Source: Chiloscyllium plagiosum (lineage: Eukaryota). From it: a stretch of DNA of 64,000 bases. Below the pieces are notes generated by a model. That model saw only the letters and a program-made list of their open reading frames with translations. It did no database searches and had not been told where the DNA came from. Shown here in pieces: positions 6,105-54,400 of the stretch. Numbering within the stretch: position 1 is the stretch's first letter; the number at the start of each line of letters is the position of its first letter. A program made the translations under genes and the position numbers. The stretch lies in NCBI RefSeq assembly GCF_004010195.1, contig NC_057719.1:38105722-38169721 (forward strand), written 5' to 3'.

Positions 6105-6144
6105 TCGCTGATGATGTTACTTAATATAGTGACGAAATGTCTGA
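6105..6144 (+). ncRNA. Minimal type I hammerhead ribozyme motif in PLE tail
   Basis: TCG-CTGATGA-T-GTTACT(taatat)AGTGAC-GAAA-TGTC-TGA; 6-bp stem II, 3-bp stem I, C>T change in the ACGT stem III palindrome. Confidence 0.75.
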
Positions 6145-6444
6145 AAACAAAACCTTCAAGCTCAGTGAGCTAACTTACAGACATCAACCTGAGCTATAAA
6201 CTTTCCTTAAAAAAAAATGCTAATTGGCCAGATTATACTTGTGTATATCTGATATCTGGATAATTTCTCAAGTTGTTAGAACAGCTTGGCTAGGGGTATG
6301 GCAGTTCTGGAGCACACTTCTTTAGTACGGTTGCTGGAATATTGTCAGAGCCAATGGCCTTTGCCATCCATTGCATTCAGCCATTTCTTGATATTTTATG
6401 CAGTGAACCAAATTGGCTGAAGATTGACATCTGAAGGAGGATTT

Positions 6445-6738
6445 TTAAAAATTGTTCAGAGTGGATGCTGCTGGCTTAGCCAGTATTTATTGCTCATCCC
6501 TAAATGCCTAGGGAGTAGTTTGAGTTGACCATACCTCTGTAGATATGGAATTCAATGTAGGCCAGACCAGGTAAAGATGGCAGATTTTCTTCTTTTAAGG
6601 ATGCCAGTGAGCCACGTGGGTTTTTAATGCCAATTGACAGTGGTTACATGTCACCATAGGGGTAGGTTTTTAAAAATTTGATTTGATTCAAATTTCACCA
6701 TCTGCTACAGTATAATTTGAGCCTATGTCCCCAGAACA
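6445..6738 (-). mobile_element. SINE family B (shares ends with LINE family B)
   Basis: Collinear with copies at 10835-11056 and 55525-55921 (gtaggccagaccaggtaaagatggcag, attcaaatttcaccatctgc). Confidence 0.7.
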
Positions 6739-8419
6739 TGTATCAGCATGCTTGAGTCAAGCTCTCAGCTCTGTTTCATCATGGCCAGCATGATGGCAGG
6801 GTAAATACTTTTAGATCATCTTCTAAGCCTTCCTGAGAGAGTGCAATATTGCTATCTACTTCTGCACACCTCCAGATCAAGATTGTCTAAGCTGGACAAG
6901 AGGCATTCGTGAAAATGTCAACCATTTTCAGCCTGTCTGACAGAGTCAATTGAAGGTCAAGTACAAACTAAGGAGCATGAAAAACCACCAATCTCATTAA
7001 GAACTGCGTCTCCTCTATGTCAGGGTATGAAGCTTCAGCAGTTTACATGACTCAAGCTCAACAATAGAAGAAAGTCCTCCTCAGTTTTGACAGTTTGCCT
7101 AAGAACAAAAGACTAAGTGCCTTTGTGTCATTGATCACTTCTGGTACCCTCAATCCCTGAATAACCCTGTGCGTCTAAATGCTTTGGAAGCTGTTTATTA
7201 ATGTCCGGAACTAAGAACTGTTGAGATCTTTGTGCACATTGGGAAGATTTGGATCTTTTTGTATTCTTTGAAATTCAGAGGAAAGTTATAGACCTGACTA
7301 TCTCTCCACACTGCTACATGATCTGAGTATTTCCAGGATTTTCTGCTTTTATAACTGTTTAGCTGGATAGGCCATCTAAAAATAGAATTATATCAAATCT
7401 TTTATTTCTGTGAACTGAGTTTAATTCTAGACTGAGGCCCTTAATCAACACATTGAAAACAATAGTGATTGAATGCGAATTTGGGCCTTCCAAATGAATT
7501 ATATTTGCATTCATGGAAAGTGGCATTCATTTGGCAAGACTGGGGTGTGAGAAGTGTAAGTACAATGCTAAGGAAGGATGAGTTTCAAATAATCGAATAA
7601 TAACGAAAATTTAGTTTCTGAATTTATCTCCTTTCTGAAAGCCCTATTGATTAACTATGTTTTGTGCCCCTAAATGTCAATGCAGCAGTGTCACCACAAG
7701 AGCTGGTGCAGTTTAGCCAATCCTACCTATATATTTATACAATTGTATGTGAGGGCAGGTTGGGCTTTTTACTTTTGTGTTCTCTGCATTGTTTTGAGTT
7801 GTATTGTTTTTTTTTGTATTAAAAAAAAAATTTCAATAAAATATAGTTTAAAAAACTGTTAACAAAAAATTAGCATAGCTGAAAAATCTTAAATGCTCTG
7901 AAGAGATGACTAAAATAGTGGAGAGTTCAGTGTTTCTAGATATTATGTGAACGTCCAGAACAGACTCTTAGTTGAAGCCAATGAAAGCGAACCCAAATTC
8001 TTGTTTCGGAAATTGGCCATGCAGCAGAACATCAGGATGGTCGTTAAGCACTAATTGACAGGATGAGATTAGTGATACATGTAAGCATTTCCCTCTGTCA
8101 TCTTTGTCTTCGTCTTCTGGATTTCTGCTTCACAGGTTACTGATCAGGGGTGATCAGAGACCTTTCTTCATAAATTTTTACCTCCAGTTGTTCTTCGATC
8201 TTTTTTCCACGTGACTAAACAGTCCATTTTTTGACCTACAGATCTTTGGAAGATGGGAGAGGATGTCCCACTAAGTATTGTGATCTGGCATACAATGTTT
8301 GCTTTTTTTTCTACTGCTGTGCCTCATTAAGATGTGATTCAATGCATTACACAACTTCATGAATAAAGTGTTGCTTTGATGTCTGAACAACTGACATAAA
8401 GTTTCTCCCAGTCAGTAAT

Positions 8420-10545
8420 AGAATAAAGAACTTTATAATGCAATACAGGCCCTTTGGTCTTCGATGTTGTGCCGACCGATGGAACCAATCTGAAGCCCTA
8501 CACTATCCTATTCTATCCAATCGATCCAATCTATTTAATTTTCATCCATATGTCGATCCAGTGACCATTTAAATGCCCTTAAAGTTGGCATATCTACTAC
8601 TGTTGCAGGCAATACGTTCCACACCCCTACTGCTCTGAGTAAAGAAACTACCTCTGACATCTGTCCTATATCATCACCCCTCAATTTAAAGCTATGTCCC
8701 ATTGTGCTAGCCATCGCCATCTGAGGAAAAAGACTCTCACTGTCCACCCAATCAAACCCTCTGATTATCTTGTATGTCTTAATTAAGTCATCTCTCAACC
8801 TAGTCTCTAACGAAAACAGCCTCGAGTCCCTCATAAGACCGCCTCTCCATACCAGGCAACATCCGAGTAAATCTTCTCTGAACCCTCTCCGAAGCTTCCA
8901 CATCCTTCCTATAATGTGGTGACCAGAACTGTACGCAATACTCCAAATGTGGCTGCACCAGAGTTTTGTACAGCTACAACATGACCTCATGGCACCAAAA
9001 CTCAATTTTTCTACCAATAAAAGCTAACACACCATATGCTTTCTTAAAGCCCTATCAACCTGGGTGGCATTTTTTAGGGATCTACGTACATGGACACAGA
9101 GATCTCTCTGCTCATCTCCACTACCAAGAATATTGGCATCAACCCAGTATTCTTTATTCCTGTTACTCCTTCCAAAATGAATCATCTCTGTTTTCTGCAT
9201 TAAACTTCATTTGCCACCTCTCAGCCTAGCTCTGCAGCTTATCTATGGGCCTCTGCAACATCCTTAGTCACTATCCACAACTCTCCCGGCCTTGGTGTAA
9301 TTTGCAAACTTACTAACCCATCCTTCTACACCCTCATCCAGGTCATTTATAAAAATGGCAACCAGTTTTGGCCCCAAAACGCATCCTTGTGGTACACCAT
9401 TAGTAACTGAACTCCAGGATGAACATTTCCTATCAACCACCCCACCCTCTATTTTCTTCCAGCCAGCCAACTTCTGATCCAAACTGCTAAATCACCCTCA
9501 ATCCCATGCCTCTGCATTTTTTGCAATAGGCTATCGTGGGGAGCCTTACCAAACGCTTTAGTGGAATCCATATACACCACATCAACTGCTTTACCCTCCT
9601 CTACCTGTTTGGTCACCTTCTCAAAGAACTCTGAGGTTTGTGAGGCACGACCTACCCTTCACAAAACAGTGTTGACTATCCCAAAGCAACTTATTCCTCT
9701 CTCTAGATGATTATAAATTCTATCTCTTATAACCTTTTCCAGCACTTTGCCTAGAACCGAAGTAAGGCTCACTGGTCTGTAATTTCCAGGGTTGTCTCTA
9801 CTCTCCTTGAACAAGGGAAGAACATTTGCTATCCTCCAGTCTTCTGGCACTATTCCTGTAGACAATGACAACATAAAGATCAAAGTCAAAGGCTCTGCAA
9901 TCTCCTTCCTGGCTTCCCAGAGAATCATAGGATGAATCTTAGGATAAATCCCAACTGGACCCGGGGACTTGGCAATTTTGGAAAATGTGAAGATAGAGAA
10001 CACCACCACCATGTGAATGTCAAACCCATCTTGTCTAGTAGCCTGTTTCTCAGTAATCTCCTCAACAACATTGTCTTTTTCCAGTGTGAATACTGATGAA
10101 AAATAATTGTTTAGTGCTTCTCCATCTCCTGAGACCCCATGCACAACTTCCCAACACTATCCTTGATAGAACCTAATTTTTGTCTCGTCGTTCTTTTATT
10201 CCTGACATACCTATATAAAGCTTTAGGGTTTTCCTTGATCCGACATGCCAACGACTTCTCATGTCCCCTCCTGGCTCTTGGCTCTCTGTTTCAGTCTTTC
10301 CTGGTAATTTGTAACTCTCAAGTGCCCTTAACTGAGCCTTCATGTCTCATCCTAACATAAGCTGTCTTCTTCCTCTTGACAAGAGATTCAACTTCTGTAA
10401 ACAATGGCTCCCTCTCTCAAATACTTCCTCCTTGCCTGACCCATGCATGTCAAGGAACACAGCTGTTCCTTGAATAAGCTCCAGATTTCAATTGTGCCCA
10501 TTCCCTGCAATTTCCTTCCCCATCCTATGCATTCGAACACTCCCC
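8420..10545 (-). mobile_element. CR1/HER1 LINE, ORF2 RT region plus 3' end
   Basis: KSPGPVGIYPK, VPEDWRIANVLPLFK, NPGNYRPVSLTSV, GVPQGCVLGP, SKFANYTK in the ORF track; frameshifted. Confidence 0.92.
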
Positions 10546-10632
10546 TTCAAATGACAGTAGTGTCAATATTGTCATTTGAAGAGCTTGAATATTTTTTAAA
10601 AATCCATTTTCTTTGCCCTTCCCTGGATTATG

Positions 10633-10706
10633 AGGAGAAAGTGAGGTCTGCAGATGCTGGAGATCAGAGCTGAAAATGTGCTTTTCCAGCAACACATTTT
10701 CAGCTT
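10633..10706. mobile_element. 74-bp fold-back PLE tail insertion with 15-bp TSD
   Basis: cttccctggattatg at 10618-10632 and 10707-10721; minus-strand tail followed by an inverted copy. Confidence 0.85.
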
Positions 10707-10834
10707 CTTCCCTGGATTATGCCTATTTTGAGAGTTGAGAAAACAGGACCTGACGACCATTACAGTATCTTGCCATCTGGACACCTTATGAAGTCCAGTG
10801 AAATTGTATTTGCTGTGTCTCTTTTTTTTTCCAG

Positions 10835-11056
10835 TCATTCAATGAGGGCATTGCTGGCTAAGTCAGCATTTACTGCCCATCCCTAATTGTCCAGAGTGCA
10901 GTTAAGAGTCAACTACGTTGCGGTGGTTCTGGAGGCCAGACCAGGTAAAGATGTCCGTTTTCTTGCCTGAAGCACAGTAGTGAACTAGATAGGTTTTTCT
11001 GACAATAAAAGGATTCACAGTTATCGTTAATTCCTTATTCTTTTTTTGAATTCAAA
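10835..11056 (-). mobile_element. SINE family B
   Basis: cagcatttactgcccatccctaattg...gttaagagtcaac...ggccagaccaggtaaagatg; matches the other family B copies. Confidence 0.7.
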
Positions 11057-11148
11057 TGAATTAATATTTACCTGAATACTTGTGGAGTTGCCTTTAAGAA
11101 GGACACTGTTTGATTGTCCTCCAGTTGAATGCAGGTGACATGCTAGTT

Positions 11149-11880: not shown

Positions 11881-11889
11881 AAATTCTCC

Positions 11890-16139: not shown

Positions 16140-16214
16140 AGTTGTTGGTGGGAAAGCTAGGGATGGAATACAGAATTGTGCTTGCTGGCTGATTTTTTTT
16201 TTAAACCGTAGCAA

Positions 16215-18705: not shown

Positions 18706-20221
18706 AGTAGTAAAACTGTTGCTTTTCAAGAGTTAGTGCTGAATGATTGGTCTAATGGTGTCCTTCTGCAATGTACTCATTTGTTTATTTATTTGGCAGT
18801 TTATCTGTTGAAGTGCAAGTTAAATTGTCCGATTGGAAACTGCGCATTGGCAGTGTGTAGCTATTGCATTACTCTTGATGGAAACTAGGTTCTTAAGCAA
18901 GGTTATATTTTTACTGATTTTAAACAATATGATCTTAGTTACATTGCACTTTTTGTGAATCCCACTTTAAATGTGGTTTACCAGGTTAACTTTATGGCAG
19001 TTTTACAGGCATTCACTTAAGATCATTATGCATTAAAATTCATCTTCATTTCTGAGTGCTTAGACAATATGGCCAAGCTGAGAGAACTTTTAAAGAGGAT
19101 TCCATACAATTCAGCAAGTTGGATCAATTTGCACCCCAGCATGTATCACTTCTACCTGCAACAACCATTAAAATGCAAAGAACATAGAAACCTTTAAGTG
19201 TGCAGAGAAAGATTGTTAGAATAAGTTTCGAGATGAGGGACCTGTTATCTGGAGAGAATGTTTTCCTTAAAGCAGAGAAGGGAAAGGAGCGATTTAATAG
19301 ATGCTCAGAGCTTGGAAGGATCTTTGTGTTTGGCATGGTCTTCCAAATCTATTGAAATGGTGTGCCAAACCACCTTTAATGCTCTTTGTAAGATCTTGTA
19401 GAAATTACCTGGATTCAAGAGCATTGATTTTGTTAACCTTTACGTCTGGTTCAATTTAGTGCCACTTTTAAAGATCATATTGCATTTGAAGTCCATTTCC
19501 ATTTAAAACTACCATTTCTCACCTTGAAAATGCTGCTTCACTTTTATTTCTATAACTGCCCTTCCTGCTCAGGTATCAGTCTTTTCTTAGTATTTTATGA
19601 TCTTTGTTACAAACGATAGTGTTCCCAACTTGGTGCCAACAACTAAATTCTGAAATTGAGTATCCAGAACACTCACCACTGTTTAAATACCACCCATGTA
19701 TGTTTTGACTTTTCGTTTATACCCAGCATTTGCTCTCTGTACTCCATGTGGGCATGTTCCTGAGAATTCTATTTCATCCTTCATTTTCTTCAGTTTCTCA
19801 TTCAGCATCATTTATCAAACTTTTCTCCCCCAAGACATTTAAATCACATCTACTCTTTTCATTTTTTTTTTCCCAAATGAACTTCTGTTTGGGTGATTAA
19901 GCATGATGTGTCTGAGGATTGACAGGGCAAGGTGAATCCTATCTATGCATCTAATTATTGTATAGCCTTTTTGTCAAGTTTTTCCTTCACCTCCGCTCCA
20001 GAGAAAACAACCCTAGTTTTTCTCGCCTCTCTTTTATAGATCATATTCTCTAATCCAGGCAGTATCCTGGTAAACCGCTTCTGCACCCTCTCCAAAGCTT
20101 CTACATCCTCCTTGTAATACGGTGACCAGAATTGAATATAACACTGTGTGGCCTAACCAAAGTATTGCAAAGCTGCAACACGACATCAAGATTCTTATAC
20201 TCAATGCCCCAACTAATAAAG

Positions 20222-20642
20222 CGCAGCAGGTCAGGCAGCATCTAGGGAACAGGAGAATCGACGTTTCGGGCATTAGCCTTTCTTCAGGAATGAGGAAAGT
20301 TGGTCCAGCAGGTTAAGATAAAAGATAGGGAGGAGGGACTTGGGGGAGGGGCGTCGGAAATGTGATAGGTGGAAAGAGGTCAAGGTGAGGGTGATAGGTC
20401 AGACTGGGGTGGGGGCGGAGAGGTCGGGAAGAAGATTGCAGGTTAGGAAGGCGGTGCTGAATTTGATGGATATAAAAGATAGGGAGGAGGGACTTGGGGG
20501 AGGGGCATCGGAAATGTGATAGGTGGAAAAGGGCTAATGCCCGAAACGTCGATTCTCCTGTTCCCTAGATGCTGCCTGACCTGCGCTTTTCCAGCAACAC
20601 ATTTCCATCTCTGATCTCCAGCATCTGCAGACCTCACTTTCT
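20222..20642. mobile_element. PLE tail insertion with inverted 5' segment and 13-15-bp TSD
   Basis: ccccaactaataaag at 20207-20221 and 20643-20657; minus-strand tail to about 20528, then plus-strand tail. Confidence 0.9.
20256..20291 (-). ncRNA. Minimal hammerhead ribozyme motif
   Basis: Reverse complement ATTC-CTGAAGA-A-AGGC(taat)GCCC-GAAACGTC-GATT; one stem II mismatch. Confidence 0.75.
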
Positions 20643-24427: not shown

Positions 24428-24945
24428 AGTACTCTGGTTGGGAGTGGGGGTGGCGTGGTTGGTGGAAAGGGGCACTGTTACGGATGATGGTACAGTTTTT
24501 ATTCTGTCCCTTTTTCCCCTTCTTTCCCCTTTTTTGTGGTTATCGGTTTTATAGATTTTGTACTGACTTGTTGTAAAACCTGATTTAATCTTATTTCAGT
24601 CGGTTGGTTATTGTCTTTGTTTTTTGCTGCTGTCCTTTGTTTTTGGATTGGGGCTGGCTATATCTGTGGATAAGATATGAGGAGGGGGAAGGGTGGGCAT
24701 CCAATGTTTGTTGCATCCATTGCTCCTGATGCAGTCTCCTCTACATTGGGGAGACTGGACGCCTCCTAGCTGAGCGCTTTAGGGAACATCTCCGGGACAC
24801 CCACACCAATCAACCACACCGCCCTGTGGCCCAACATTTCAACTTCCCTTCCCACTCTGCCGAGGACATGGGGGTCCTGGGCCGCCTCCACCGTCGCTCC
24901 CTCACCACCAGACGCCTGGAGGAAGAACGCCTCATCTTCTGCCGT

Positions 24946-25108
24946 GGCGGCACAGTGGTTAGCACAGCTGCCTCACAGCGCTAGAGACCCGTGTCCAATT
25001 CCTGCCTCAGGCGACTGACTGTGGAGTTTGCACGTTCTCCCCGTGTCTGCGTGGGTTTCCTCCGGGTGCTCCGGTTTCCTCCCACAGTCCAAAGATGTGC
25101 AGGTTAGG
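24946..25108 (+). mobile_element. HE1 SINE nested in the PLE, running into an assembly gap
   Basis: ggcacagtggttagcac and V-domain. Confidence 0.9.
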
Positions 25109-25187
25109 NNNNNNNNNNNNNNNNNNNNNNNNNNNNNNNNNNNNNNNNNNNNNNNNNNNNNNNNNNNNNNNNNNNNNNNNNNNNNNN
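25109..25187. other. Assembly gap (79 N)
   Basis: N run. Confidence 1.
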
Positions 25188-25418
25188 CTCACTTCCCCTT
25201 CCCCCACCTCACCCTAGTTCCAAACTTCCAGCTCAGCACTGTCCCCATGACTTGTCCTACCTGCCTATCTTCTTTTCCACCTATCTACTCCACCCTCCCC
25301 CTGCCCCCAACCTATCACCTTCATCCCTCCCCCACTCACCTATTGTACTCTATTCTACTTTCTCCCCACCTCCACCCTCCTTTCACTTATCTCTCCACCC
25401 TTCAGGCTCTCTGCCTTT

Positions 25419-25454
25419 ATTCCTGATGAAGGGCTTTTGCCCGACACGTCGATT
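25419..25454 (+). ncRNA. Hammerhead motif with mutated core (GACAC)
   Basis: ATTC-CTGATGA-A-GGGC(tttt)GCCC-GACACGTC-GATT. Confidence 0.65.
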
Positions 25455-26134
25455 TTGCTGCTCCTCGGATGCTGCCTGAACTGCTGTGCTCTTCCAGCAC
25501 CACTAAGCCAAAATCTGGTTTCCAGCATCTGCAGTCGTTTTTACCTATCCAATGTTAACTCTCAGGAATGTAAATAACATGTTCTGTTTGTCTGTGAATT
25601 GCCTGGTGCTGGGACCTGGCTTCAGCTGAAAGGAGCCAGGATGATTGCAAGGATTGGGAGGATTGTCCCCTGTGGGAAGTGGGGAGATCTCTAGTGAACT
25701 GGGGTTTATTTGGGTGTTTACGTTAAATGTAGTGGTTAGTATTTTTAGTTGGAGTAGTTTTTAGACTTTGTAGAGTTAATGTCTTTGTTGCTTGCTGCAT
25801 CTCAGATAAGCTTCCTCCTCTTGGGAAACCACGGGCTGCCTTGTTCAGGTAGTGAGTGCATCTGCAATGTAAAAGGCGGCCATTCCCCCATTTTTGGAAA
25901 AAAGGAAGGAAAGGGTTGACATTGCCCTGCTGCAGGAGACACGTTTTAACTGATAAGGAACATGTGAAGCTGCAGCAGTGGGGTCACGACAGGGTATTTT
26001 TCTTTTCCTTTAGCTCCAAAAGTAAAGGGTTAGCTATACCGGTAAGAAGGAACCTCCCATTCCAAGTAACTGAGCAAATTAAGGACGAACATGGATGGTT
26101 CATCATTCTTAAAGCTCGAAGAGGAGTATGGTAT

Positions 26135-26732: not shown

Positions 26733-27986
26733 AGTATTCCTAAATATTTATTGTCCTCCAATGCACCCTCTTAAACTTCCTAATTAACGCAGTTGCCAAA
26801 TTAATCAATCTTGGGGTGTGCCACATGATCATGGGAGGGAATTTTAACCGCCTAATGGATCCCAGGGTAGACAGGATGCCAAGGGGCCCAGCAGGTACGC
26901 CCTTGCATTCTAGGCAGTTGATGAACTTGTGTGAGGAGTAGGGATTAGTGGATGTGTGGAGGCAGCTCCACCCTAATGGGAGAGACTTTACTTTTTATTC
27001 CAACCCACACAAGTGCCACACACAAATTGACATATTCCTTATGCTATCAGTTTGTTTCGACAGAAACATTGGCTTGCAAAATTGGGGGTATAACTATCTT
27101 GGACCATGTGGCGGTATATTTAGATGTTAAAATCAAAGGTGGTGGAATAGATGTATGGCACTGTTGCATGGACCCATTCCTGTTAAGGGATAGCAAACTT
27201 GTTGAGTACATTACAAGTGTGTTCAGGGCCTTCTGGGATATCAACTCAGGTACGGCCAGTAATCCGGCAATACTTTGGGAGGCACGAAGGCATATTTGAG
27301 GCCTGATCATTTCATATTCAACAATTAGAAGGAGGAGCAGCAACGGAGGCTGGAGATATGGCTGAAGGTAGCTGAGGAAGCATGCTATAATAGGCTTTCA
27401 TTGGTCAAGCTGCAGCGTATCATGGCACTCCAGGCTGCTCGCGACTCATTGCGCACACAGGTGGCAAAAAAAGAGGTCTCCTCTTTCCTGAGTGAGTTTT
27501 ATAAGGAATTCATAAATGTGTTGGTGGAGCCACTTTTGAGGATGTATAGCTATTCATATACACAGGATTGTCTTCTACATTCTCTTGGGGAGGCTAATAT
27601 CTCCCTCATTTTAAAGAAGGGGAAATACCTCAAAGACAACGCTTCATACAGTCCAATTTCATTGTTGAATCTAGACTTAAAACTCTGTCAAAGGTGCTGG
27701 CCCTGAGGTTGGAAAAGGGATTGCCCTATATTGTGAAGAGATGAGACGAGTTTTATCAAGAGCCGTAGCTCTTCCAATGATATCGGTTGGGGGGTGTCCT
27801 GAACATAGTGCAGGTATGCCAGCAATGGTTGATCCCGGGTTTGGTGGCCTCCCTAGACGAGGGAAAGGCATATGACCGGATAGAATAGCCATACCTGTTT
27901 GGGGTCCTAGAGCGCTTTGGTCTTGGGGCAGCCTGGTGGGTGGCGGTGTTGTATAATGATCCTAAGGTGATAGTCATCTCAAACAG

Positions 27987-28405
27987 ACAAAAGTGAGGAC
28001 CGCACAAGCTGGAGATTATAGTCAAGATTAGAGTGGTGTTGGAAATGCAGGTCAGGCAGCATCCAAGGAACAGGAAAATAGACGTTTCGGGCAGGAGTCT
28101 TTCATCAGGAATGAGGCTGGAAGCCTCTGGGGTGGACAGATAAATGGGAGGGGGTGGGGCTGGGGAGAAGGTAGTTGGGAGTGCAATAGGTAGATGGAGG
28201 AAGGGGTAAAGGTGATAGGTGGAGCGGATAGGTGGGAAGAAAGATTATGATAGGTGGGACAGGTCACTACGATGGTGCTGAGCTGCAAGTTTGGAACTAG
28301 GGTAAGGTGGGGGGAGGGGAGATGAGGAAACTAGTGAAGTCTACATTGATCCCTGGTGTTCAAGGGTTCCGAGGCGGAAGATGAGGTATTCTTTCTCCAG
28401 GCATC
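27987..28405 (-). mobile_element. Neptune-type PLE 3' end with degraded hammerhead (28077-28112)
   Basis: Reverse strand has the YLIFRLGTLE remnant, a C-rich UTR and attcctgatgaaagactcctgcccgaaacgtc. Confidence 0.85.
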
Positions 28406-28576
28406 CCTCGGGGATTGAGTCTATTTAGTTTGAAGCCTCGCGGTCGAGATGTCCCCAAGTTAATCTATTATTCGTGGATAAGATTCAATCTGTGATCAAA
28501 CAGTGTAAGAGCCCAATCATTTTAAATATGGTGAATGCTTGGAAAAAGCCCAGGTCTTATGGGTGGTACAGGCTGG

Positions 28577-28762
28577 ACCCAATATACCAACCACTACAGC
28601 TGAAACTGACAACCGGAAGCGGCAGGGACAGACCACTATAAACACCGGAGGAAATATCAAAGAAGCGCTTCGCAGGAGGCTCCCAAGCACTGATGATGTC
28701 GCCTAGCCAGGGGACGAAACGTTTGCAACAAAAACTTCCAGCTCGGCGAACAGAACCACAGC
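28577..28762 (+). mobile_element. 186-bp Poseidon-type PLE tail insertion with 9-bp TSD
   Basis: acaggctgg at 28568-28576 and 28763-28771; CpG-rich; tail architecture resembles 6060-6180. Confidence 0.85.
28687..28726 (+). ncRNA. Minimal type I hammerhead ribozyme motif, core intact
   Basis: GCA-CTGATGA-T-GTCgCCT(agcc)AGGgGAC-GAAACGTT-TGC. Confidence 0.8.
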
Positions 28763-29220
28763 ACAGGCTGGTAATGGAGCATCTCCCCCAAGACTACCTC
28801 TCAAATATGGTGCACCACAAAATGGAGCGGTTTTATTATTGACACAGACGTTTTGACAATATTAATTAGGGCTGTGATATAGCCGTGGGCATCAGTTTGG
28901 GTGCTCATTGGGCCTTGGGAGGGGGAGGTTAGTTGAAAAGTACAGGTACAATGATTGGTGCTCCCAGGGGTGGGAGCTTCTGTGGAGGTGTGGTAGTGAA
29001 ATAGAATAAAGTAATGTGATTTAATTCAATTTAAGTTAATTTGAATTCAGCTCAACTTAATTTTTATTTAATTTGATTATAGTTTAATTAGGTACATTTG
29101 TTCTGGTAGAATAGTAGGTAGTTTATTATTATAGTATTGTGATATGACATTTAACTACCTCTATCTTGTATTTTGGTATTGTTTTTATATGTAGTTGTAA
29201 AAGATTTGAAAGCTTTTAAT

Positions 29221-32389: not shown

Positions 32390-33885
32390 CCAGTGGTTCA
32401 GGTTTGCTGCTGAAAGCGTGGTCTCTTGTACATAACACTAAGTACAGATTGAGGTGCCCACTTTGAGAAACCCCTCCATTCAATCTGCAAACAAAGCCCG
32501 AGCTTTTGGTAGTCTGCAAATTTAATTCTCTAACTTGTTTTCATGCTGGCATCTCAAGCTCTGGCCTACTGCATGGTTTTGTGAGGCTAAATGTAAACTT
32601 CAACAATAGCAACTCATCCTTCGATAATACACCTTACAGCCTCAATAATGCGTTTAGAACTTTCAGGCTGTAAACTGTCTCCTGTCAATTTTGTTCTATA
32701 GAGTCATCGTGTCATAGTTATACAGCACGGAAACAGACTCTTCAGTCCAACTCGACTGTGCTGACCAAATTTCCCAAATTAAATTAGTACCACTTGCCTG
32801 TGTTTGATCCATATCCCTCTAAACCATTCCTGTTGATGTACCTATATAAATGTCTTTTAAATGTTGTGCCTGTACCTGCATTTACCACTTCCTCTGGCAG
32901 TTTGTTCCACATATGAACCACAGTCTGTGTGGAAAAACGTGCCACTCTGGTCCCTTTATAAATCTATCTTCTCACTTTAAAATAATGCCCTTCAGTTTTG
33001 AGCTCCCCCACCTTAAGCAAAAAGGCCTTTTGCTATTCACCTTATCAATGATTTTATAAAGGGTTATAAGGCCACCTGATAGTCTCCTACACTCCATTGA
33101 AAAAAGTCTGAGCCTTTCTCGCCTCTCCTCAACTTGAACCCTCCAGGCACAGAAATTTCCTTTATAAATCTTTTCTGTACCCGTTCCAATTTAATAATAT
33201 CCTTCCTATAGCAGGATGACCAGAACTATATACAATATCTCACAAATGGCCTTGCCAGCATCCTGTATGACTACAACATGATGTCCCAATTTTTATATTC
33301 AATGGTCTGAGCAAAGAACGCAGTGTGCCAACCACATTTATCACCTTGTCTATCTGTGATGCAACATTGAAGGAATTATGCACCAGAACCCCTAGATGTC
33401 TCTGTTCGACAGTACATTCCAGGGCCTACCATTAATTGTGTTAAGTCCTGCCAAAATGTAACATGTTATATTTATCAAAGTTAAATTCTGTCTGCCACTC
33501 CTCAGCCCATTGGCCCCGTTGATCAAGGTCCCTTTGTACTGTTACATAACCTTCACTGTCTACCACCAATATTGGTGTCATCCGCAAGCTTATTGTCCAT
33601 GCTTCTTGTATTCTTGTCCAAAATAATTTATTTGATTTACTTTATTTTGCATTCAGAATGTAACACACCCACTTCTTGGTCCATCTTTTGTTTCTTGTTC
33701 TGTTACCATTCCCTTAGACTCTGGAGAGCTAACTCCTCTGTCACTTCGTTGCCATGTTTTGTACCCTGTCTGACAATATCTCAAACTTTTCACTGTTTTG
33801 ATGAAAGGTCGTCATCAACCTGAAACCTTTAACCCGGTGTTTGTTTTTAAATAGTACCTGACCTGTTGAGTATTTTTCTAATTTC
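32390..33885 (+). mobile_element. Old PLE 3' part (GIY-YIG and tail) split by a CR1
   Basis: Degenerate CGLLYI...FEKPLHS...CKFNS remnant at 32.4-32.7 kb; tail with degenerate hammerhead gttttgatgaaaggtcgtcatcaacctgaaac at about 33795-33833. Confidence 0.6.
32698..33628 (-). mobile_element. CR1/HER1 3' fragment
   Basis: Tail atagagtcat...cagcacggaaacagac; reverse-strand KLADDTNIG. Confidence 0.85.
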
Positions 33886-35689: not shown

Positions 35690-35810
35690 AAAAAGCAAAA
35701 TAAAGCAAAAAATTCCAGTAAACGAAACCTCAGCATCTATGGAGAAAAAGCAAAATTAACGTTTTGGGTACATTGACCCTTCTGAAGGGTCCAGCAATTT
35801 CTGTTTTTGT
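35690..35810. mobile_element. Old PLE tail with fold-back at the hammerhead
   Basis: Minus-strand tail ends in gacccttc-t-gaagggtc, then a plus-strand tail; gtctaaa flanks both sides. Confidence 0.55.
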
Positions 35811-39184: not shown

Positions 39185-39273
39185 TGAAGAAGGGCTAATG
39201 CCCGAAACGTCGATTCTCCTGTTCCCTAGATGCTGCCTGACCTGCTGCGCTTTTCCAGCAACACATTTCCATC
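39185..39273 (+). mobile_element. PLE tail fragment starting inside the hammerhead core
   Basis: tgaagaagggctaatgcccgaaacgtcgattc..., essentially identical to 20529-20610. Confidence 0.85.
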
Positions 39274-39888
39274 TCACCAGGGATTTGTAGAGCTGCAGCA
39301 AAACCTCGCAGCTCTTAAACTCTATCCCCCTGTTGATGAAAGCCAAAACACCATATGCTTTCTTAACAACCCTATCCACTTGGGTGACAACTTTGAGGGA
39401 TCTGTGCACTTAAACACCATGATCCCAATGTTCCTCCACTGCCAAGAATCCTGTCTTTAATCCTATATTCAGCATTCAGGTTCGACCTTCCAAAATGCAT
39501 CACATTGCGTTTATCCAGGTTGCACTCCATCTTGCATTTCTCAGCCCAGCTCTGCATCCTGTCTATGTCGCCCTGCAGCCTGCAATAGTCCTTGATACTA
39601 TCAATGATACCTCCGACCTTTGTGTCATTGGCAAGTTTACTAACCCACCCCTCCACCTCATCCAAGTCATTTATAAAAACTACAAAGAGCAGAGGCCCAA
39701 GAACAGAACCCTGCATGACACCACTCCCCACTGATCTCCAGGCAGAATACTTTGCATCTACAATCATTGTCTTCTGTCAGCCAACCAATTCTGAATCCAG
39801 ACAGCCAGATCTCCCTGTATCCCACATCTCCTGACTTATGAATGAGGCTACTGTGGGGAACCTCATCAAATTCCTTGAAGTCCATATA

Positions 39889-41392: not shown

Positions 41393-41487
41393 GATTTCTG
41401 ATGAAGGGATTATGCTCGAAACATCGACTCTCCTGCTCCTTGGATGCTGCCTGACCGGCTGTGCTTTTCCAGCACCACACTCTTCGA
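41393..41487 (+). mobile_element. 95-bp PLE tail insertion starting at a decayed hammerhead
   Basis: TSD cttattaaat (41383-41392) / cttgttaaat (41488-41497); ctgatgaagggattatgctcgaaacatcga. Confidence 0.8.
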
Positions 41488-45135: not shown

Positions 45136-47877
45136 AATTTGGGCCATCATCGACCTGCTGTTGTTTGAGAACTATATGCACTGATTGCCCATTCCTCCAG
45201 CCAGCATTTTGTCTATTGTATTCTTTAGTCTTGTCTTGACAAGGTGACCCTACTTCTTATACCTGTTCCACTGAATGCAGAATTGTCCATTTCTGAAGGC
45301 TATATTGGCGAAGTATTTGCAACTTTGTATTGCTACTATCTGTGGGGCCTTTGGCTTACTCAGCTGCAACTTACTTACTTCAGAAGATTAGTTATTAACT
45401 GTGTCTGATGAGTCACGTTCTTCTGTGTTCATGGATGGTGCTGATTTGCAAGCTATGTCAAAGTTAACTTTGGCGATGTCAGTATCTACTTTGAATGCAT
45501 TGACTGTTTTAAGCCATGCACAAGTCAGTCTTGTAGTGCTGTCTTAAAATTTCCAAATTATGTTGAATATATAGGTTTTGCAAAGCCACAATAAACTCTC
45601 TAAAGCCCTCAATGTTAGTCGATTCTTGTTTTGAAACACTCAGCAATCCCCAGCGGTTTGGGACTGTGATGTATTCACATTTATACAAAATGTCTGACCA
45701 TTGCAAATCTTTGTCTCAGCTGGGACAAGCTGTTGCTATCCCCTCCGTGGGAAAAAAAAGAGCCTGATTAGAAGTTAGCTTATTCGGATCTTTGCAGTTA
45801 TTACTAACATTCAAAAACAGTAGTGAATGAATTGTATGCATCACTGACCATCACTCTTGTCATGAATTGCAGTACTGATTTCCCCCCCTTCTAATGTGAC
45901 TTTAGAGTTTGGCATCAACTACTGGGGATATGTGCAGATCAATAATTATAAACTAATCAAACAGCTTGATCAGCCAATCAGTTTAAAGAATTATTACAGC
46001 AAACCAGGAAATAAAATGCAAAAGTTGTAGTTATTTTATAAAGTGCTTAATTATGATTGAGACAGACATTTGGATTAAGGTAGAAGCTGTTGTCATAAAC
46101 TTAAATATTTTTCATTGTCTAATTTTCTTTTAGAGAATACATTTTGTAATTTATAGTGTAGTGACTGAAAAAACTACTGTGAATTTCCTCTTGTCGCTGT
46201 GCATCTTTGCAGCTTGTGCATAGCTGCTGTGGTGCCATCCCAACACTAGGTCTGTGACCTGTCTACTTGGAAGTAGACTTGTGTCAAGGACCCCAGCTGA
46301 AAGAGGTCTGGTGGTGTTGGATCAGAACCTCTATCAGATGTAGTGGGGACAAGTGTTGCCATGTTCCCAATCACTGTGGGCCTGTTAGAGCCCCGTATCC
46401 TGAAGTACACCCTAGTCCTGGGTACTGGAGTCAGGCCTTCTGTCTCGGTGGGAGGAATCCAATTATACTTTTAAATTCTTGGGTTTCAGTATCTAAATCG
46501 CTGTTAACTATTGTCAAAATTGTTCAAATGAAAAGATGGAGGAACCGTAATTCATTCTTTTTGTGATCTCTGCATTTGACTGTCAATTCATTCCTGGATG
46601 TGTTATCGGCTGGGGGTCTGACAGCAGCGAGGGTTGAGGGGATGGACTGTGAGTGAAGTGTTGAAAGGAGATATTGGTCCTCATTACCAAATTACAGACT
46701 AGTATGTTGAGCATTAAAAGGGTTGGAAAGGCAGTGTAATGTTGTGAGAAGCTTGGTACCCCTCCCACCTAGATTTCTGGCCCCTCCATTTCTGGTCTCT
46801 GGCTTCATCAGCATAACTGCCCTGTTGAAATGTCCCTTATTTTATTATACAGATGCCACATTAGTTGCCATCTCAAATTTAGGGAAACTTGTCATTAGAT
46901 AGCCAATTCCTAATTTGACTGTCCCTGTCAGTGACACACGATACTGCTTGCATCTTAACACACACCCTTTTTCTGAAACTTAATTTTAAAATATAAGTTT
47001 TCTATCCCCATTTCCAAGTACAGTTTTGTCCACTAATGAAAATGAAACGTCTTTCAGATATGAGATATTGCCTTGTGCTCCATTTATAAATGGTATATAC
47101 ATAAGAAGAACCTTGTGCCAATCATCTTGGCTTTTGATATCAAAAGCGTTTGATCACTTTGTGAGAAACCTTAGGGTTAGCAGTTCGTCATGTCTTATGG
47201 GTAATCAAATGTCACTGCAAAGTGGATGGGAAATATTTCTTCGATGGTTTGTTGGATAAAAGTTTTTGCCACAGGATGTAATTGATGCAATAACCATAAC
47301 GTCTTTTATAGGAAAAATAGACACTTACTTGAAATAGAAAATATTATTGGAGTATGCTGCACAAGTTTTACTCTGGTTAACTTTGGGATACTATTGGATT
47401 CCAGTTTGTGATCTTGTAACCTTACTATAGTGAGTGTGCTCAAAAATGACAAGTAATGTGTAAATGGAACAGGTAAATTTGAACTACGTTAGCTTGACAT
47501 TTCTTGTAATTAAATTGTTGATGAATATGAGGACATCAGCTAATTGTTGGCAGATTTGAAATAAGTACATGTGAAACAGGGAGGAGAGAGAATCTCCTGA
47601 ACAGTTCTTGACACTTATTTTCTTCGTTGGATGGCTGCATGACATGCACTGAAATCCATCACTCTGTTTAGTTTAGACATATAACAATTGAGGCAATTTC
47701 CCTTCCCATGTGGTTAAAGATGCCCTCCAACGCATCTCGTCCACATCCTGCACCTCCGCCCTCAGACCCCACCAACCGTAACCAGGACCGAACCCCCCCT
47801 GGTGCTCACCTTCCACCCTACCAAGCTTCGCATAAACCAAATCATCCGCTGACATTTCCGCCACCTCCAAACGGACC

Positions 47878-48154
47878 NNNNNNNNNNNNNNNNNNNNNNN
47901 NNNNNNNNNNNNNNNNNNNNNNNNNNNNNNNNNNNNNNNNNNNNNNNNNNNNNNNNNNNNNNNNNNNNNNNNNNNNNNNNNNNNNNNNNNNNNNNNNNNN
48001 NNNNNNNNNNNNNNNNNNNNNNNNNNNNNNNNNNNNNNNNNNNNNNNNNNNNNNNNNNNNNNNNNNNNNNNNNNNNNNNNNNNNNNNNNNNNNNNNNNNN
48101 NNNNNNNNNNNNNNNNNNNNNNNNNNNNNNNNNNNNNNNNNNNNNNNNNNNNNN
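47878..48154. other. Assembly gap (277 N)
   Basis: N run. Confidence 1.
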
Positions 48155-48446
48155 CCACTGCAACTCCCAGGTCATTTCCTCTGCCCTGAAGCTTTTCAAC
48201 CATGTCCTGAAACAGACTCGCTACCACAGCCACATTTGCTTCCTCATTACCTGCCTCCGTTACCAAATAATCCTCCACGGACTCCGGGCCACCTTTAAAC
48301 CAGCAGAGTTCGGATCCGAACAGGTCACTCCACCCTCCTGTCTGACCTATCCCCCCACGCCCGCCCCCACCCACCTATTGTACTCAATGCTACTTTCTCC
48401 CCACCCCCACCCTCCTCTCATTTATCTCTCCAGGCACTGTACCTGT

Positions 48447-48482
48447 ATTCCTGATGAAGGGCTTTTGCCCGAAACGTCGATT
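48447..48482 (+). ncRNA. Minimal type I hammerhead ribozyme motif, intact core and stem II
   Basis: ATTC-CTGATGA-A-GGGC(tttt)GCCC-GAAACGTC-GATT. Confidence 0.82.
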
Positions 48483-49067
48483 TTACAGCTGCTCGGATGC
48501 TGCCTGAACTGCTGTGCTTTTCCAGCACCAATAATCCAGAATATAACAATTGAGATACACTGCAGTAGCTCACAAAGACTTACTTGACACATTACAAATC
48601 TCTGTCCTCTATCCGCCAGAAAGACAGGGCCAGGAGAATGCAAGTACCCTGTAGGTTGCACGCCATCATACTTTTGAATTATATATTGCTGCTGTTCCTT
48701 TACTGTTGCCAGGCTGAAAATGCAAGAACTCTGTTCCTGCACGACATAAAACTGTAGCAGTTCAAGAAGGAAATTTTAGATGTTCAATGTCATTGGCAGA
48801 GTCGACATTTAAAGTCATCCTAAGAATGAATAAAAACAAACTTTTTTGTGTACAAGTTTGTAAAGCTAACATTTAGAAAGCCAAAGGGATGGTATAGTGT
48901 ACCACTGGTTAAAAGGAAAGAGTTTGCGGAACAACCTCTCTTTTATGGTATTACCATCCTGTTCTTTACTAGGTTTTTAATAGAATTTTAAATTGAAAAT
49001 TCATTCTTTGAGATTAATGAAGTTCGTATCTCAGATTTAAAGCTTTAATGCTAATTCTTACTCCTCA

Positions 49068-49360: not shown

Positions 49361-49383
49361 TCAGCTGATTTGGGGAAAAAAAA

Positions 49384-49687
49384 GGGCGGCACGGTGGCTC
49401 AGTGGTTAGCACTGCTGCCTCACAGCACCAGGATCCCAGGTTCGATTCCAGCCTCGGGTGACTGTGTGGAGTTTGCACATTCTCCCCGTGTCTGTGGGGG
49501 TTTCCTCCGGTGTCCTCCCACAGTCCAAAGATGTGCAGGTCAGGTGAATTGGCCGTGCTAAATTGCCCACAGTGTTAGGTGCATTAGTCAGAGGGAAATG
49601 GGTCTGGGTGGGTTACTCTTTGGAGGATCGGTGTGGACTGGTTGGGCCGAAGGGCCTGTTTCCCCACTGTAGGGAATCTAAATCTAA
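49384..49687 (+). mobile_element. HE1 SINE, full length
   Basis: TGGCTCAGTGG, GGTTCGATTCC, V-domain, aatcta tail. Confidence 0.93.
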
Positions 49688-51489
49688 ATTTTTAAAAAAT
49701 CATGAAGATATCAAATTGGAACTTAAGTTGCAGTGCTTGATTTGGGACATTTCTGGTTGAAACACCTGTCACAAGATTATATCCTACTTTGTGCAGCATC
49801 TCAGCAAATGCAATCAGTTGACAGTCATTTGATAAAGCTTTAGCTTATGAGAAATATTGCAAAGGTAAGTTACTATTTAATTATGTATGATTTCATTTTT
49901 GAAGGTTATTTGAAATAGTAACAATTTGAGGTCAGTTTCACAGTTTATAATATTTTGAATCCATTTATCTGATTGTTTCATGGTAAAACAGCAAATAGCC
50001 TTGCTTACTGAACCAATAATGTAGATGTGTTGCTAAAATAGAATTGTCAGGATACACCTTTAGCAATTCAATTGTAAATCCTCGGACCAATTCAAATTTC
50101 AATATTAGGCTGCCATTTAATAATATTTGATTTAATTGATTAACTTTTTAATGTTGGTGGCTGTTTTCTTTAAAATCCTTCCTAAAGGAAGAGGTAGCAA
50201 AGTTTTAGTGTCAGCGCTAATAATTGAGGCTTGGCCTAATGCTCTGGTGGTATAAGCTGAAATATCACAAATACTATACCTGGAATTAAAACTGGTCAAA
50301 TGGTGACCATGAAACCATCATTGTTGTAAAAACTCGCCTGGATCACCTGTGCTCTTTTGGGTAGAAAACCTAGTATCCTGATCTGCTTTGACTTGCATAT
50401 GACCCCAGGCCCATAACATAGTTGACTTTTGGCTTCCATCTGAAATGACCTAGCAAAGTACTGTTGTATGTGACCTCCTGGAAAGTTTTTAAAACAAAAA
50501 AAAACAGACGGACCACCTGGAATCAACTGAGACATTGAAATCCAGTACTGTGAACCCTGCAAAGTAAATCCTGCTTACTCTTGTCTGAAGACAAGTGCCA
50601 CAATTGGGAATGCTATCTCTCAAACCAGTTAAGCAACACTGTGGAAAATGTCATGCTCTCAAATTCCTATCTTGCAAACAATGCCCTAGACAATGCCATC
50701 ACCTTTCTCTGGCCTGTGCTGTCCCACCAGCAGGACTACAGTGTGCAGTGTCCAGAGTGGCAGATCAGTATGTACACTTGGGAGGACTTTGATCTGGGAA
50801 TCTTCAACATTAACTCTGGAGTCCAGGAATTTTCATAGTTTCCTTGCTCACATCTGACTTGATACCACCTGTTGATTATTATCTACCACATCAAATGAAT
50901 CAGTACAACTTCATCTTGAACACCAATTGAAAGAAGTACTGAGCAACAAGAGCATAGAACGTACTCTGGTGCCATCTTTACCTAGCAAGAATTACTGAAA
51001 TGCATGAGAGCTTGGCATGCCCTTCGTCAAACTATTGCAGTGTAGTTGCAACACTGGCATCTATCTGACAAGGTAGAATATTGTCCAGCGATGTCCTGCA
51101 TAAGAAATCATACCTGGCCAATTTCTGTTCCGTCTGTCTACTTTCAATCATCAGTGAAGTGATAGAAGGTGCTATTAACAGTGCAATTAAGCAGCATTTG
51201 CTTAGCAATAATCTGTCAGTTGATGCCTAGTCTAGGTTCCACCAGGGCCACTCAGCTCCTGACTTCACGTATGAACCAAGGTTGTAATAGACAAGAGAGC
51301 CAAGTTCCAGAGATGAGGTGTGAGTCGACTACCGTTGGGGTAATTGCCAAACTTGAGAGAGCCCGAGATGCCTTCGCAAAACTGGAATCAATGGTCATTA
51401 TTCAATGACATTTTCATCACTGAATCCCCCATCCTCAATATACTGAGGATTATCATTGACCATAAACTGAATTGAACTAGCCGTATGAA

Positions 51490-51594
51490 CTAGCCCATTC
51501 CTGAAGAAGGGCTTATGCCTGAAATGTCGATTCTCCTGCTCCTTGGATGCTGCCTGACCTGCTGCGCTTTTCCAGTAGCACATTTTTCAGCTCT
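51490..51594 (+). mobile_element. 105-bp PLE tail insertion starting at a hammerhead (51497-51532)
   Basis: TSD tagccgtatgaa (51478-51489) / tagccatatgaa (51595-51606); attcctgaagaagggcttatgcctgaaatgtcgatt. Confidence 0.85.
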
Positions 51595-51845
51595 TAGCCA
51601 TATGAATGCTGTGGTCTCAAATGTAAACATTTTAATATAATTCTTATGGTACAGACATGATCGTCCAAAAGACCTATTCTGTAATGCATGATTGTAGCGC
51701 AGATCAGGCTAGCAATGCTGCAGTGAGTAACTCAAATCTTACACACACGCGCCACATACGTAGCACAGATCAAAAGTATGATGGAGCACTCTCCACTTGC
51801 CTGAATGTGTAGTTCCAACAACACTTGAAACTTGATATTATCCAC

Positions 51846-51930
51846 TCGGATGCTGTCTGAACTGCTGTGCCCTTCCAGCACCACTAATCCAGAATCTGGT
51901 GTCCAGCATCTGCAGTCATTGTTTTTACCC
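51846..51930 (+). mobile_element. 85-bp PLE tail insertion with 9-bp TSD
   Basis: attatccac at 51837-51845 and 51931-51939; matches 25464-25545. Confidence 0.85.
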
Positions 51931-52582
51931 ATTATCCACAACAAAGCAACTGATTTGAATGGCACCCTATCCAATATCTTTAACATTCATTTCTTTCACC
52001 ACTGACACAGTAGCGCCAATATGGAGCATCTGCATGTTACATTATAGCAACATACCAGAATTTCTTTTGACAGAAACTTTCAAACCTGAAAACCGTAACA
52101 CCCTTCATTCCACACGTCATTCTGACTTGGAATTGTTTGCTGTCCTTTTGCTGTCTCTGGGTCAATATCCTGGAGTTCAAAGACTGCAGCTGTTCAATGA
52201 AGCAGTTTGCCACCATCACCTCCATGGGAATTGAAGGCAATAAATGCTTGCCTAGCCAGGGCTGTCCATATTCCCTGAATGATTTAAAACCACTCTATCT
52301 TTCCACTTTGTCCAAGCTTTTGAAGATCTGGTACGATATCTCCCCATAAAGCTGGTGTCATATTTTATTGTACAGTACTGCACAACACTATGAAAAAGTC
52401 ATGCTGTCAGATTCCTATCTTGCAGACAATGCCAGGATGTTTCATTGTATTGAAGGTGTTATTACTGCTTTCAGATACCTTGATGCTTGTCAAAGGGTAA
52501 GCTTGCTTGATTCTGTTTGTTGTTTTCATGTTCTTGCTTCACTCTTCTTTCTATCTTTAGCTTTCTGTTCTTTCTTTCTCAC

Positions 52583-53655
52583 TTCTCATACAGCACGGAA
52601 ACAGACCATCAGGCCAACTCGTCTATGCTGACCAGGTACTCTACATGAATCTAGACCTATTTGACAGCGTTTGGCCCATATCCCTCCCTATTCTTATACC
52701 CATCCACTTGCTGCTTAAATGTTGTAATTGTAACAGCCTCAAAACCACGTATGGTAGTCATTACATATACACCATCTTCTCTGAAATAGTTGTCATTTTA
52801 GGTCCCTTTTAAATCTTTCCCCTCTCACCTTAGCCTATGCCCTCTATTTCCGGAATCCTCTACCCTGGGGATAAAACCTTGACTACTAACCCTATTGATG
52901 CCCCTCATGGCCTTATAAGCTATGCGTTTACCACTCAGTCTTTGATGCTTCAGGGAAAATAGCCCCAGCATATTCAGCTGCTTCCTATAGCTCAAACCTT
53001 TCACCCTTTTATAAAAGGCAATATCCTTGTAAATCTTTTCTAAACCCTTTCAAGTTTCACAGCATCCTTCCTCTAACAGAGGCCAGAATTGAATGCAGTA
53101 CTCCAAAATTGGCCTAATGAATATCCTGTACAGCTGCAAGATAACATCCCAATCCTATATTCAGTGCATTAACTAATAAAGGCAAGAATACCAAATGCTG
53201 CCTTCACTATCCCGTCTGGGAGAAAGTGAGGACTGCAGATGCTGGAGATCAGAGCTGAAAATGTGTTGCTGGAAAAATGCAGCAGGTTCACTATCCCATC
53301 TACCTATGACTGTGCTTTCAAGGAACTATGAAAGTGTACTTTAGGTCTCTTCTGTTCGGCAACACTCCCAAGACGTTGCCATTAAGTGTATAAGTGTTGC
53401 TGTGATTTGTCTTACCAAAATTAAGCACCTCACATTTATCTAAATTAAATTTGCCACTTGCCCATCTGATCAAAGTCCTGTTGTCCTCTGAGCAATCTTC
53501 ACTGTCCATTACATCTCCAATTTTGGTGTCATCTGCAAACTTACTCACCATACCTCCTATATTCACATCCAAATCATTTATATAAGTGATAAAAAGCAAT
53601 TGATCCTTGTGGCACACTGCTGGTCACAGGCCCCTAGTCTGACAAGCAGCCCTTT
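52583..53655 (-). mobile_element. CR1/HER1 3' fragment
   Basis: YINDLDVNIGGMVSKFADDTKIG. Confidence 0.9.
53218..53286 (-). mobile_element. 69-bp PLE tail insertion with 15-bp TSD
   Basis: ttcactatcccgtct (53203-53217) / ttcactatcccatct (53287-53301). Confidence 0.85.
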
Positions 53656-53747
53656 TGGCCATTTCTCAAGTAACTTTTATAATAAATTTCCTCAGGAGCT
53701 TCTCAAGAACATTATAAAACACAAAAAGACAACCATATTAGATGATT

Positions 53748-54400
53748 AGGAGATGCTGGTGTTGGATTGGGCTGTACAAAGTTAAAAATCACACAACACC
53801 AAGTAATAGTCCAACAGGTTTATTTGGAAGCACTAGCTTTTGGAGTGCTGCTCTTTCAGGTGTTTTGGGCGGCGCGGTGGTACAGTGGTTAGCACTGCTG
53901 CCTCACAGCACCAGAGACCTGGGTTCAATTCCCGACTCAGGCGACTGACTGTGTGGAGTTTGCACATTCTCCCCGTGTCTGCGTGGGTTTCCTCCGGGTG
54001 CTCCGGTTTCCTCCCACAGTCCAAAGATGTGCAGGTCAGGTGAATTGGCCATGCTAAATTGCCTGTAGTGTTAGGTAGGGGGGTAAATGTAGGGGAATGG
54101 GTGGGTTGCGCTTCGGCGGGTCGGTGTGGACTTGGGCCGAAGGGCCTGTTTCCACACTGTAAGTAATCTAATCTAAAAGATTGTAAGACTCAGAATTTGT
54201 AGCAAAAGTTTACAGTGTGATGTAACTGAAATTATATATTGAAAAAGACCTGGATTGTTTAAGTCTCTCATCTTTTAGAATAATCATGTTGATTTCAGTT
54301 CTCATTTGTAAATTGCAAAACCTTTTTTTTTTAAACAATAGTTACATTCTCAAGTGAATTTTAACAATTGGTGTCATGTTGGCCCAGATAATGTATTGAA
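53748..54400 (-). mobile_element. Fourth PLE tail type with degenerate hammerhead (53831-53862), split by HE1
   Basis: Reverse complement CAC-CTGA..-AGAGC(agc)ACTCC-AAAAGCTA-GTG: CAC/GTG stem I, AGCT palindrome, damaged core. Confidence 0.55.
53867..54175 (+). mobile_element. HE1 SINE, young full length
   Basis: Closely similar to the reverse complement of 15813-16139. Confidence 0.95.

Follow-up and report, generated by a model that had tools for sequence, protein, structure and literature searches.

Minimal hammerhead ribozymes are already known from the ends of Penelope-like elements (PLEs), as found by Cervera and de la Pena 2014 (PMC4209133). In the pseudo-long terminal repeats (pseudo-LTRs) of these retrotransposons they are described with a CUGANGA core, an extra base before stem II, the pair G10.1-C11.1, a palindromic 15.2-16.2 centre and a helix III without a loop, and genomes are reported to carry many families, mostly as single truncated copies and in some cases as close pairs on opposite strands. 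In vitro, monomers of this class did not cleave and dimers cleaved at a low level (PMC4209133). For Anolis it is reported that the ribozyme needs the protein of the element, that it is dispensable for insertion and that reverse transcription starts internally (PMC11167929), and the role of PLE hammerheads has been called unclear (PMC8557442). Here we analyse the hammerhead motifs in 64,000 nucleotides of the shark Chiloscyllium plagiosum (RefSeq assembly GCF_004010195.1, contig NC_057719.1, positions 38,105,722 to 38,169,721 of the forward strand; this whole stretch is called the window) and their relatives elsewhere in the genome. Our literature searches, whose coverage leaves out most subscription journals and paper supplements, returned no relevant report on hammerhead ribozymes in sharks.

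The motifs fall into the groups A1, A2, A3, B, C, D1, D2 and E. With high probability at least five PLE lineages carried them as minimal type I hammerheads in their terminal repeats and left them behind in short insertions, 5'-truncated and often mirror-image, which are likely decaying without selection. Judged by its sequence features, the set is a very abundant new one of the already known PLE minimal type, and every defining sequence feature is found at the level of the families. The anatomy described above for pseudo-LTR motifs is shared, as are the many families per genome, the mostly single truncated copies and the close opposite-strand pairs. Stem II has 4-6 bp and helix I 2-4 bp across the families here, compared with 7-8 and 4-5 bp reported for Schistosoma (PMC4209133). 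An ATG at the start of stem II is reported for PAc, a Poseidon element of Anolis (PMC11167929), and is also found in family B, whereas A, D and E lack it. Neptune-clade PLEs are described with a CX2-5CxxC linker between the reverse transcriptase (RT) and the C-terminal GIY-YIG endonuclease (PMC8557442), a feature common to family A, which is placed in the clade by this motif alone. The inverted 5'-truncated copies and the one-sided tail of that clade are shared as well, whereas a pile-up of 5' ends at helix I, seen here, does not appear in those parts of the published account of Neptune-clade insertions that we drew on (PMC8557442). Non-LTR retrozymes (PMC7229834; bioRxiv 10.64898/2026.07.22.740005) also have a type I hammerhead, a relation to PLEs and a very high copy number; the bioRxiv study included one chondrichthyan in its sampling. 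They are tandem repeats of 170-400 nt with canonical ribozymes, in contrast to the dispersed or inverted copies with minimal ribozymes described here.

The pairing of the stems is kept across the families. In majority sequences that were built from real copies of eight families, the core boxes CUGANGA and GAAA-NN-UH as well as an extra A or U before stem II are found in all eight. G10.1-C11.1 is G-C in seven majorities and G-U in the old family E. The palindromic 15.2-16.2 centre, with no helix III loop, is CG or GC in six of the eight, with CpG decay in C and E, and the centre of stem III alternates between CG and GC among families. The helix I pairs I.1 and I.2 are kept in 8/8 majorities with three pair types each, and the helix II pair II.3 in 8/8 with four pair types. 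Across four lineages, pairing is present in 30 of 32 cells, where shuffles gave a mean of 17.7 and none of 100,000 reached 30, in a statistic that ignores the kinship of the lineages. The original prediction had claimed that the stems differ between types and keep pairing, and this covariation bears it out. Helix I of A1 and A3 has just 2 bp plus a U.U. In B, C, D, A2 and E the fold of the monomer closes at the base of helix I. In a folding model that ignores tertiary contacts, a dimeric hammerhead was the lowest-energy two-strand fold in none of seven families, which fits a need for help in folding.

For the window, about a dozen motifs from at least four PLE tail types had been predicted, at 14 named sites. 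The described sequences are present at all 14, with C3 within a few bases of the predicted position at the plus-strand sites, and the stem I, stem II and stem III pairings given for them can all be read in the sequence. Our strict descriptor (CUGANGA, an optional extra base, stem II of at least 4 bp, GAAA-NN-UH, stem I of at least 2 bp, G.U allowed) found four of the 14 sites, with C3 at 6108, 28690, 48451 and 51501, and had no match in any of 20 dinucleotide shuffles of the window. When one core mismatch was tolerated, 25423 joined as a fifth site, compared with a shuffle mean of 0.45. Only 28690 and 48451 are perfect, keeping G10.1-C11.1 and the S-S centre of the palindrome (the exact core pattern). 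The four sites called degenerate are genuine family members with broken cores; a search profile built from 32 copies outside the window matched 3884-3794 (E-value 1.6e-22), 35783-35731 (2.7e-10) and 33795-33875 (5e-6), and its best match to the reversed window had an E-value of 0.64. The dozen is therefore real as remnants, and only two to four of its members are intact ribozymes. The count of tail types was, if anything, cautious, since five lineages (A, B, C, D and E) are present. An Rfam search of the window gave seven matches at an E-value of 10 or below with no hammerhead family among them, so the canonical type I model was not matched. Positions within a motif are numbered from C3 as 0, which puts the predicted cut at +28 in A, +29 in D, +30 in E and +34 in B and C. 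The copies and the coding fragments next to them are the following.

3794-3890, minus strand: old family E stub with a broken core (blastn 85%, and the first of the profile matches)
5708-6213, plus strand: family C 3' fragment of Penelope/Poseidon type with a hammerhead at 6105-6144, from descriptor and sequence comparison; intact core with 6 bp in stem II and 3 bp in stem I; UG left as the decayed centre of the palindrome; the DNA upstream resembles, by eye, the endonuclease end of family B
20218-20633, both strands: family A1 head-to-head insertion with a 15-bp target duplication; minus arm 20471-20218 with C3 at 20287 and G10.1 changed to A; plus arm 20529-20633 with a truncated core that lacks the start of CUGAAGA
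24730-24939, plus strand: GIY-YIG endonuclease fragment of an A3 element, frame broken upstream (Pfam GIY-YIG E-value 0.025, below the cut-off)
25188-25547, plus strand: family A3 3' untranslated region (UTR), hammerhead (25419-25454, C3 at 25423) and tail; A14 changed to C, giving GACA for GAAA
27998-28405, minus strand: older A-type copy with the endonuclease C-terminus; C3 at 28108, stem II broken
28573-28763, plus strand: family B end of Penelope/Poseidon type with a fully intact hammerhead at 28687-28726 and an ATG at A9-U-G10.1
33795-33875, plus strand: degenerate E-like remnant found by the profile, C3 changed to U, palindrome gone; no blastn match at an E-value of 1e-4
35731-35783, minus strand: family E remnant with a broken core, found by the profile
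39185-39275, plus strand: family A1 stub that begins one base inside the core, with neither C3 nor the 5' strand of stem I
41394-41479, plus strand: A-type stub that begins at -4, C3 at 41398; core boxes preserved, stem II of 3 bp, CA where the palindrome would read CG
47695-47876, plus strand: PLE coding fragment from the part that lies between RT and endonuclease; the 48451 copy follows downstream (tblastn E-value 1.6e-14)
48326-48542, plus strand: family A3 end with an intact hammerhead at 48447-48482, C3 at 48451, stem I 2 bp
51496-51594, plus strand: family A1 stub that begins at -5, C3 at 51501; intact core boxes, with G.U pairs left by two CpG transitions
53742-53858, minus strand: family D stub of the AGCU palindrome type, 91% identical to family D, with a core deletion and G12 changed to A

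There are more PLE tail remnants without a ribozyme in the window, at 7298-7359, 10677-10705 and 51845-51929 on the plus strand and at 53287-53237 on the minus strand. An abundant tRNA-like short interspersed element (SINE), which we take to be HE1-like, lies at 24943-25109, where it splits the A3 element directly after the GIY-YIG fragment, and has further copies at 5054, 15872 (minus strand), 49100 and 53872. The stretch at about 26800-27990 is, by eye, decayed coding DNA that is presumably LINE-1-like.

The motifs are linked to RT and GIY-YIG coding DNA in the families A, B, C and D, which supports their predicted PLE origin. For B the upstream DNA is a Penelope/Poseidon-type endonuclease only, for C the assignment was made by eye, and for D a GIY-YIG piece lies 589 nt upstream at one locus. 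The A3 fragment at 24730-24939 is 84% identical to the RT-endonuclease frame of locus L065, which combines an RT-like YIDD motif with a CX4CxxC linker and a GIY-YIG domain (E-value 1.6e-4). Protein of the L065 type is found within 900 nt upstream of 15 of the 28 intact main-cluster A3 motifs, a set that includes loci chosen by their endonuclease, and copies of A1 and A2 likewise follow it. Genome-wide, a first look gave 85,295 candidates for the GIY-YIG fragment. The tail of family E is homologous to that of family A, and all nine intact E copies reach at most 16 nt upstream. The A3 reading frame appears to begin about 165 nt behind C3. Among 30 arms that hold this frame start, one visibly begins at -3, one continues into the 3' UTR and most begin inside the tail or at a gap. 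The 3' ends of copies fall into two groups, with an optional tail of 30-40 nt.

Two candidates were rejected in this part of the analysis. Among those listed, the long open frames that looked like full-length elements were mostly runs of N, and A2 is not a family of stubs only, since six of its 28 arms carry the 3' UTR, one of them with endonuclease DNA. We further observed a single open frame of 497 amino acids at L065:5508-7001, in which other RT-like DNA runs in frame into a 5'-truncated PLE frame. In many A3 insertions (L282-L311, and about 48150-48330 in the window) the 5' region is fused directly to the 3' UTR, with a junction that differs per copy. The A3 frame-start 33-mer has 1,072 exact matches, and the 3' UTR of family D contains a (CA)n run (L017, L107, L128).

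In the 3.56 Gb genome we counted 166,330 exact cores, or one per 21 kb, with a pattern that does not test pairing; the reversed pattern, used as control, gave 263. The family patterns gave 54,424 matches for A1/A3, 14,648 for A2, 13,859 for B/C, 17,454 for D and 6 for E. A sample of 1.13 Mb was also taken, made up of the window, 100 kb next to it and 100 stretches placed at round coordinates of large scaffolds; in this sample a search by the tail alone found 276 remnants. This is one per 4.1 kb and extrapolates to about 870,000 remnants genome-wide. After the 12 remnants at gaps were dropped, 264 were scored. The copy starts inside or behind the core in 111 of them and the core is intact in 75; 42 keep stem II and the palindrome too, and 18 of these have no inverted mate. 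The density of about one motif per 5 kb, which the original prediction had considered as possibly typical, therefore holds for remnants, whereas intact motifs occur once per 21-27 kb. Published hammerhead counts are about 4,000 for the coelacanth and 9,000 for Xenopus (PMC4209133) and 126,247 canonical motifs for the axolotl (PMC7229834). The count here is above all three, in a comparison that is rough because the descriptors differ.

A feature of the short copies that bears on the mechanism is their 5' edge. Young copies were picked for this count regardless of their core, and 50 of the 112 young A and D copies start between -7 and +2; D starts at -72 to -74, which stem from the chosen reference, were counted as long. 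Only four of the 112 start within 3 nt of the cut, two of which are one internal duplication, so truncation at the cleavage site was rejected as the main class. The range of -7 to +2 also holds the starts of 18 of 52 solo young copies and of 17 of 30 tail-selected A1 arms, one of them at a gap, and all eight young random A2 copies are stubs. The modal start is the first base of helix I, at -4 in A (AUUC) and at -3 in D (CAC). Genome-wide, the number of A1/A3 pattern matches falls from 54,424 for the pattern that begins at C3 to 35,659 for -4 and to at most 21,542 for -9, the last with a pattern that is shorter at its 3' end. At L252, L257, L259, L276 and L277 the target duplication is about 9-15 bp long, and its final letters coincide with those at the start of the stub. 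When the upstream flanks of 57 solo stubs were compared with each other, most proved unrelated, and several of the matches have the look of inverted arms that had been overlooked. Upstream DNA is common to three E stubs, which means that some stubs of this family may extend further than they appear to. A search by eye for an additional G in front of the -4 start, the mark expected of a cap, gave no consistent picture. In RNA reads that cover about 2 in 100 of one run of a poly(A) single-cell library, loose ends and joints from strand switching occur at -4.

These starts likely mark where the copied RNA begins. The edge reads TCATTCC in A1 and TTATTCC in A3, and it fits the initiator consensus, which we take to be YYANWYY; the D edge does not fit it. 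For Drosophila Penelope a start site and an internal promoter inside the repeat are reported (PMC2377424).

In place, the copies look like decaying fossils and not like a working repertoire. The catalytic G12 lies in a CpG and is mismatched in 21 of 85 A copies, compared with 39 of 154 CpG positions of the tail, and thus decays as any CpG. Head-to-head mates within 1.5 kb were found for 126 of the 276 sampled copies (randomised mean 22, maximum 42), and direct mates within the same distance for 32 of 276 (randomised mean 44), so tandem repeats that each carry a hammerhead are not enriched among the sampled copies. In the transcript of a head-to-head pair, such as 20218-20633, a sense copy would pair with its antisense and not form a dimer. 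Rare head-to-tail stub pairs (L265, L011, L308) are the sole places with two sense ribozymes close by. One A1 copy has 1,508 reads on both strands, which fits read-through somewhere in the genome and is not tied to the window; among the read ends on this copy in the poly(A) single-cell run there is no site where many molecules begin or end, and none at the cleavage site. Reads on L015:1000-1560 have A>G (13) and T>C (14) among their commonest differences, for which hairpin editing and copy variation are indistinguishable. No host exon was recognised in 150 of the 230 unique open frames of the window, with one weak chance match. On these grounds the copies probably cleave only seldom where they sit.

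We propose that selection would keep the fold in a few master elements only; there it would probably depend on a second copy or on the protein of the element, in line with reports on other PLEs. Reverse transcription would take uncleaved RNA as its template and prime at an internal site, within the tail and 90-130 nt behind the ribozyme. An RT that uses the first repeat of the transcript would run off the RNA 5' end at the foot of helix I and leave the common stub of 95-135 nt, and priming from both cut strands would give the palindromic insertions. Host read-through transcription would seldom result in cleavage. That the RNA starts at the foot of helix I and that internally primed RT runs off its end has, in our estimate, an even chance of being right.

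Several observations weigh against this account or against the decay of unselected copies. Among the copies of family B there is no pile-up at the 5' edge. Molecule starts do not accumulate at -4 in the poly(A) single-cell reads. Microhomology between the junctions and the target duplication is frequent and could have displaced the peak or produced it. For family E no PLE coding DNA was found among the genome copies inspected, only stubs, and the 30 A3-frame-start loci hold no full-length element, only internally deleted or gapped composites. In family A the core mismatches outside CpG are fewer than in the tail, with 29 of 850 (3.4%) against 300 of 3,416 (8.8%), in a comparison that is confounded by subfamily differences of the tail and by an alignment required to cross the core, both of which favour a kept core; even so, the figures do not speak for neutral decay. 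The main rival, which we consider possible and rather less probable than a start of the RNA, is that RT stops, or microhomology joins the ends, at the base of a folded or protein-bound ribozyme. The modal start indeed tracks the length of helix I, the monomer folds of five families close at that base, several A2 copies share letters between the target duplication and the start of the element, and the reads lack the molecule starts just mentioned. However, B has a stable fold and yet no pile-up, the ATT word recurs at +29 in A1 without a peak there (none of 32 young A1 copies starts within 3 nt of the cut), and the match of the A1 and A3 edges to the presumed initiator speaks for a start, even if D does not share it. 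Rather improbable is that the stubs are a separate non-autonomous unit of ribozyme and tail, SINE-like or retrozyme-like, which is transcribed and copied again alone. Stubs do outnumber long copies, and the nine intact E copies and the eight young A2 copies described above would suit such a unit, but the long A2 copies, 5' ends that differ copy by copy and the lack of retrozyme-style tandem arrays argue against it.

Another reading goes back to the original prediction of a very large hammerhead repertoire that would be co-transcribed with host introns. In this reading the genome holds many working ribozymes, and copies read through within introns would cut the host pre-mRNA. The 166,330 exact cores, the 42 intact copies among 264, the family reads on both strands and the apparently better kept core positions outside CpG could be brought forward for it, and the predicted very large number stands. 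A working set is not supported, because G12 decays at the CpG rate of the tails, direct neighbours are not enriched and antisense mates are, and read ends do not pile up. Monomers of the class are reported as inactive and dimers as weak in vitro (PMC4209133), the dimer fold was favoured in no family, and no exon was recognised in the frames inspected, so we consider such a repertoire very unlikely. Least credible of all, to the point of being nearly negligible, is that the motifs are chance look-alikes within a repeat family. The missing Rfam match and the helix I of just 2 bp in A1 and A3 could point that way, but the absence of matches in 20 shuffles, the genome-wide excess over the reversed control and the likeness to the anatomy of published PLE motifs oppose it, and the compensatory changes between lineages already refute it.

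Motif counts would thus overstate the number of working ribozymes, since some 16 of every 100 remnants are intact and the majority of neighbours lie antisense. A bolder reading, to which we give somewhat less than even odds, has the transcript of the Neptune-type elements of this genome start with the opening base of the hammerhead, which would make a strong-stop-like piece of ribozyme and priming tail the commonest insertion. One of the largest hammerhead sets yet recorded may have arisen in this way, with at least 166,000 exact cores and about 870,000 remnants by extrapolation, and uncleaved RNA would be the template in vivo. Copies that end at the front edge of the ribozyme and almost never at the cut site agree with in vitro data according to which the copied RNA is uncleaved, and the hundreds of thousands of copies in this genome may be read as a fossil record of the PLE insertion step.

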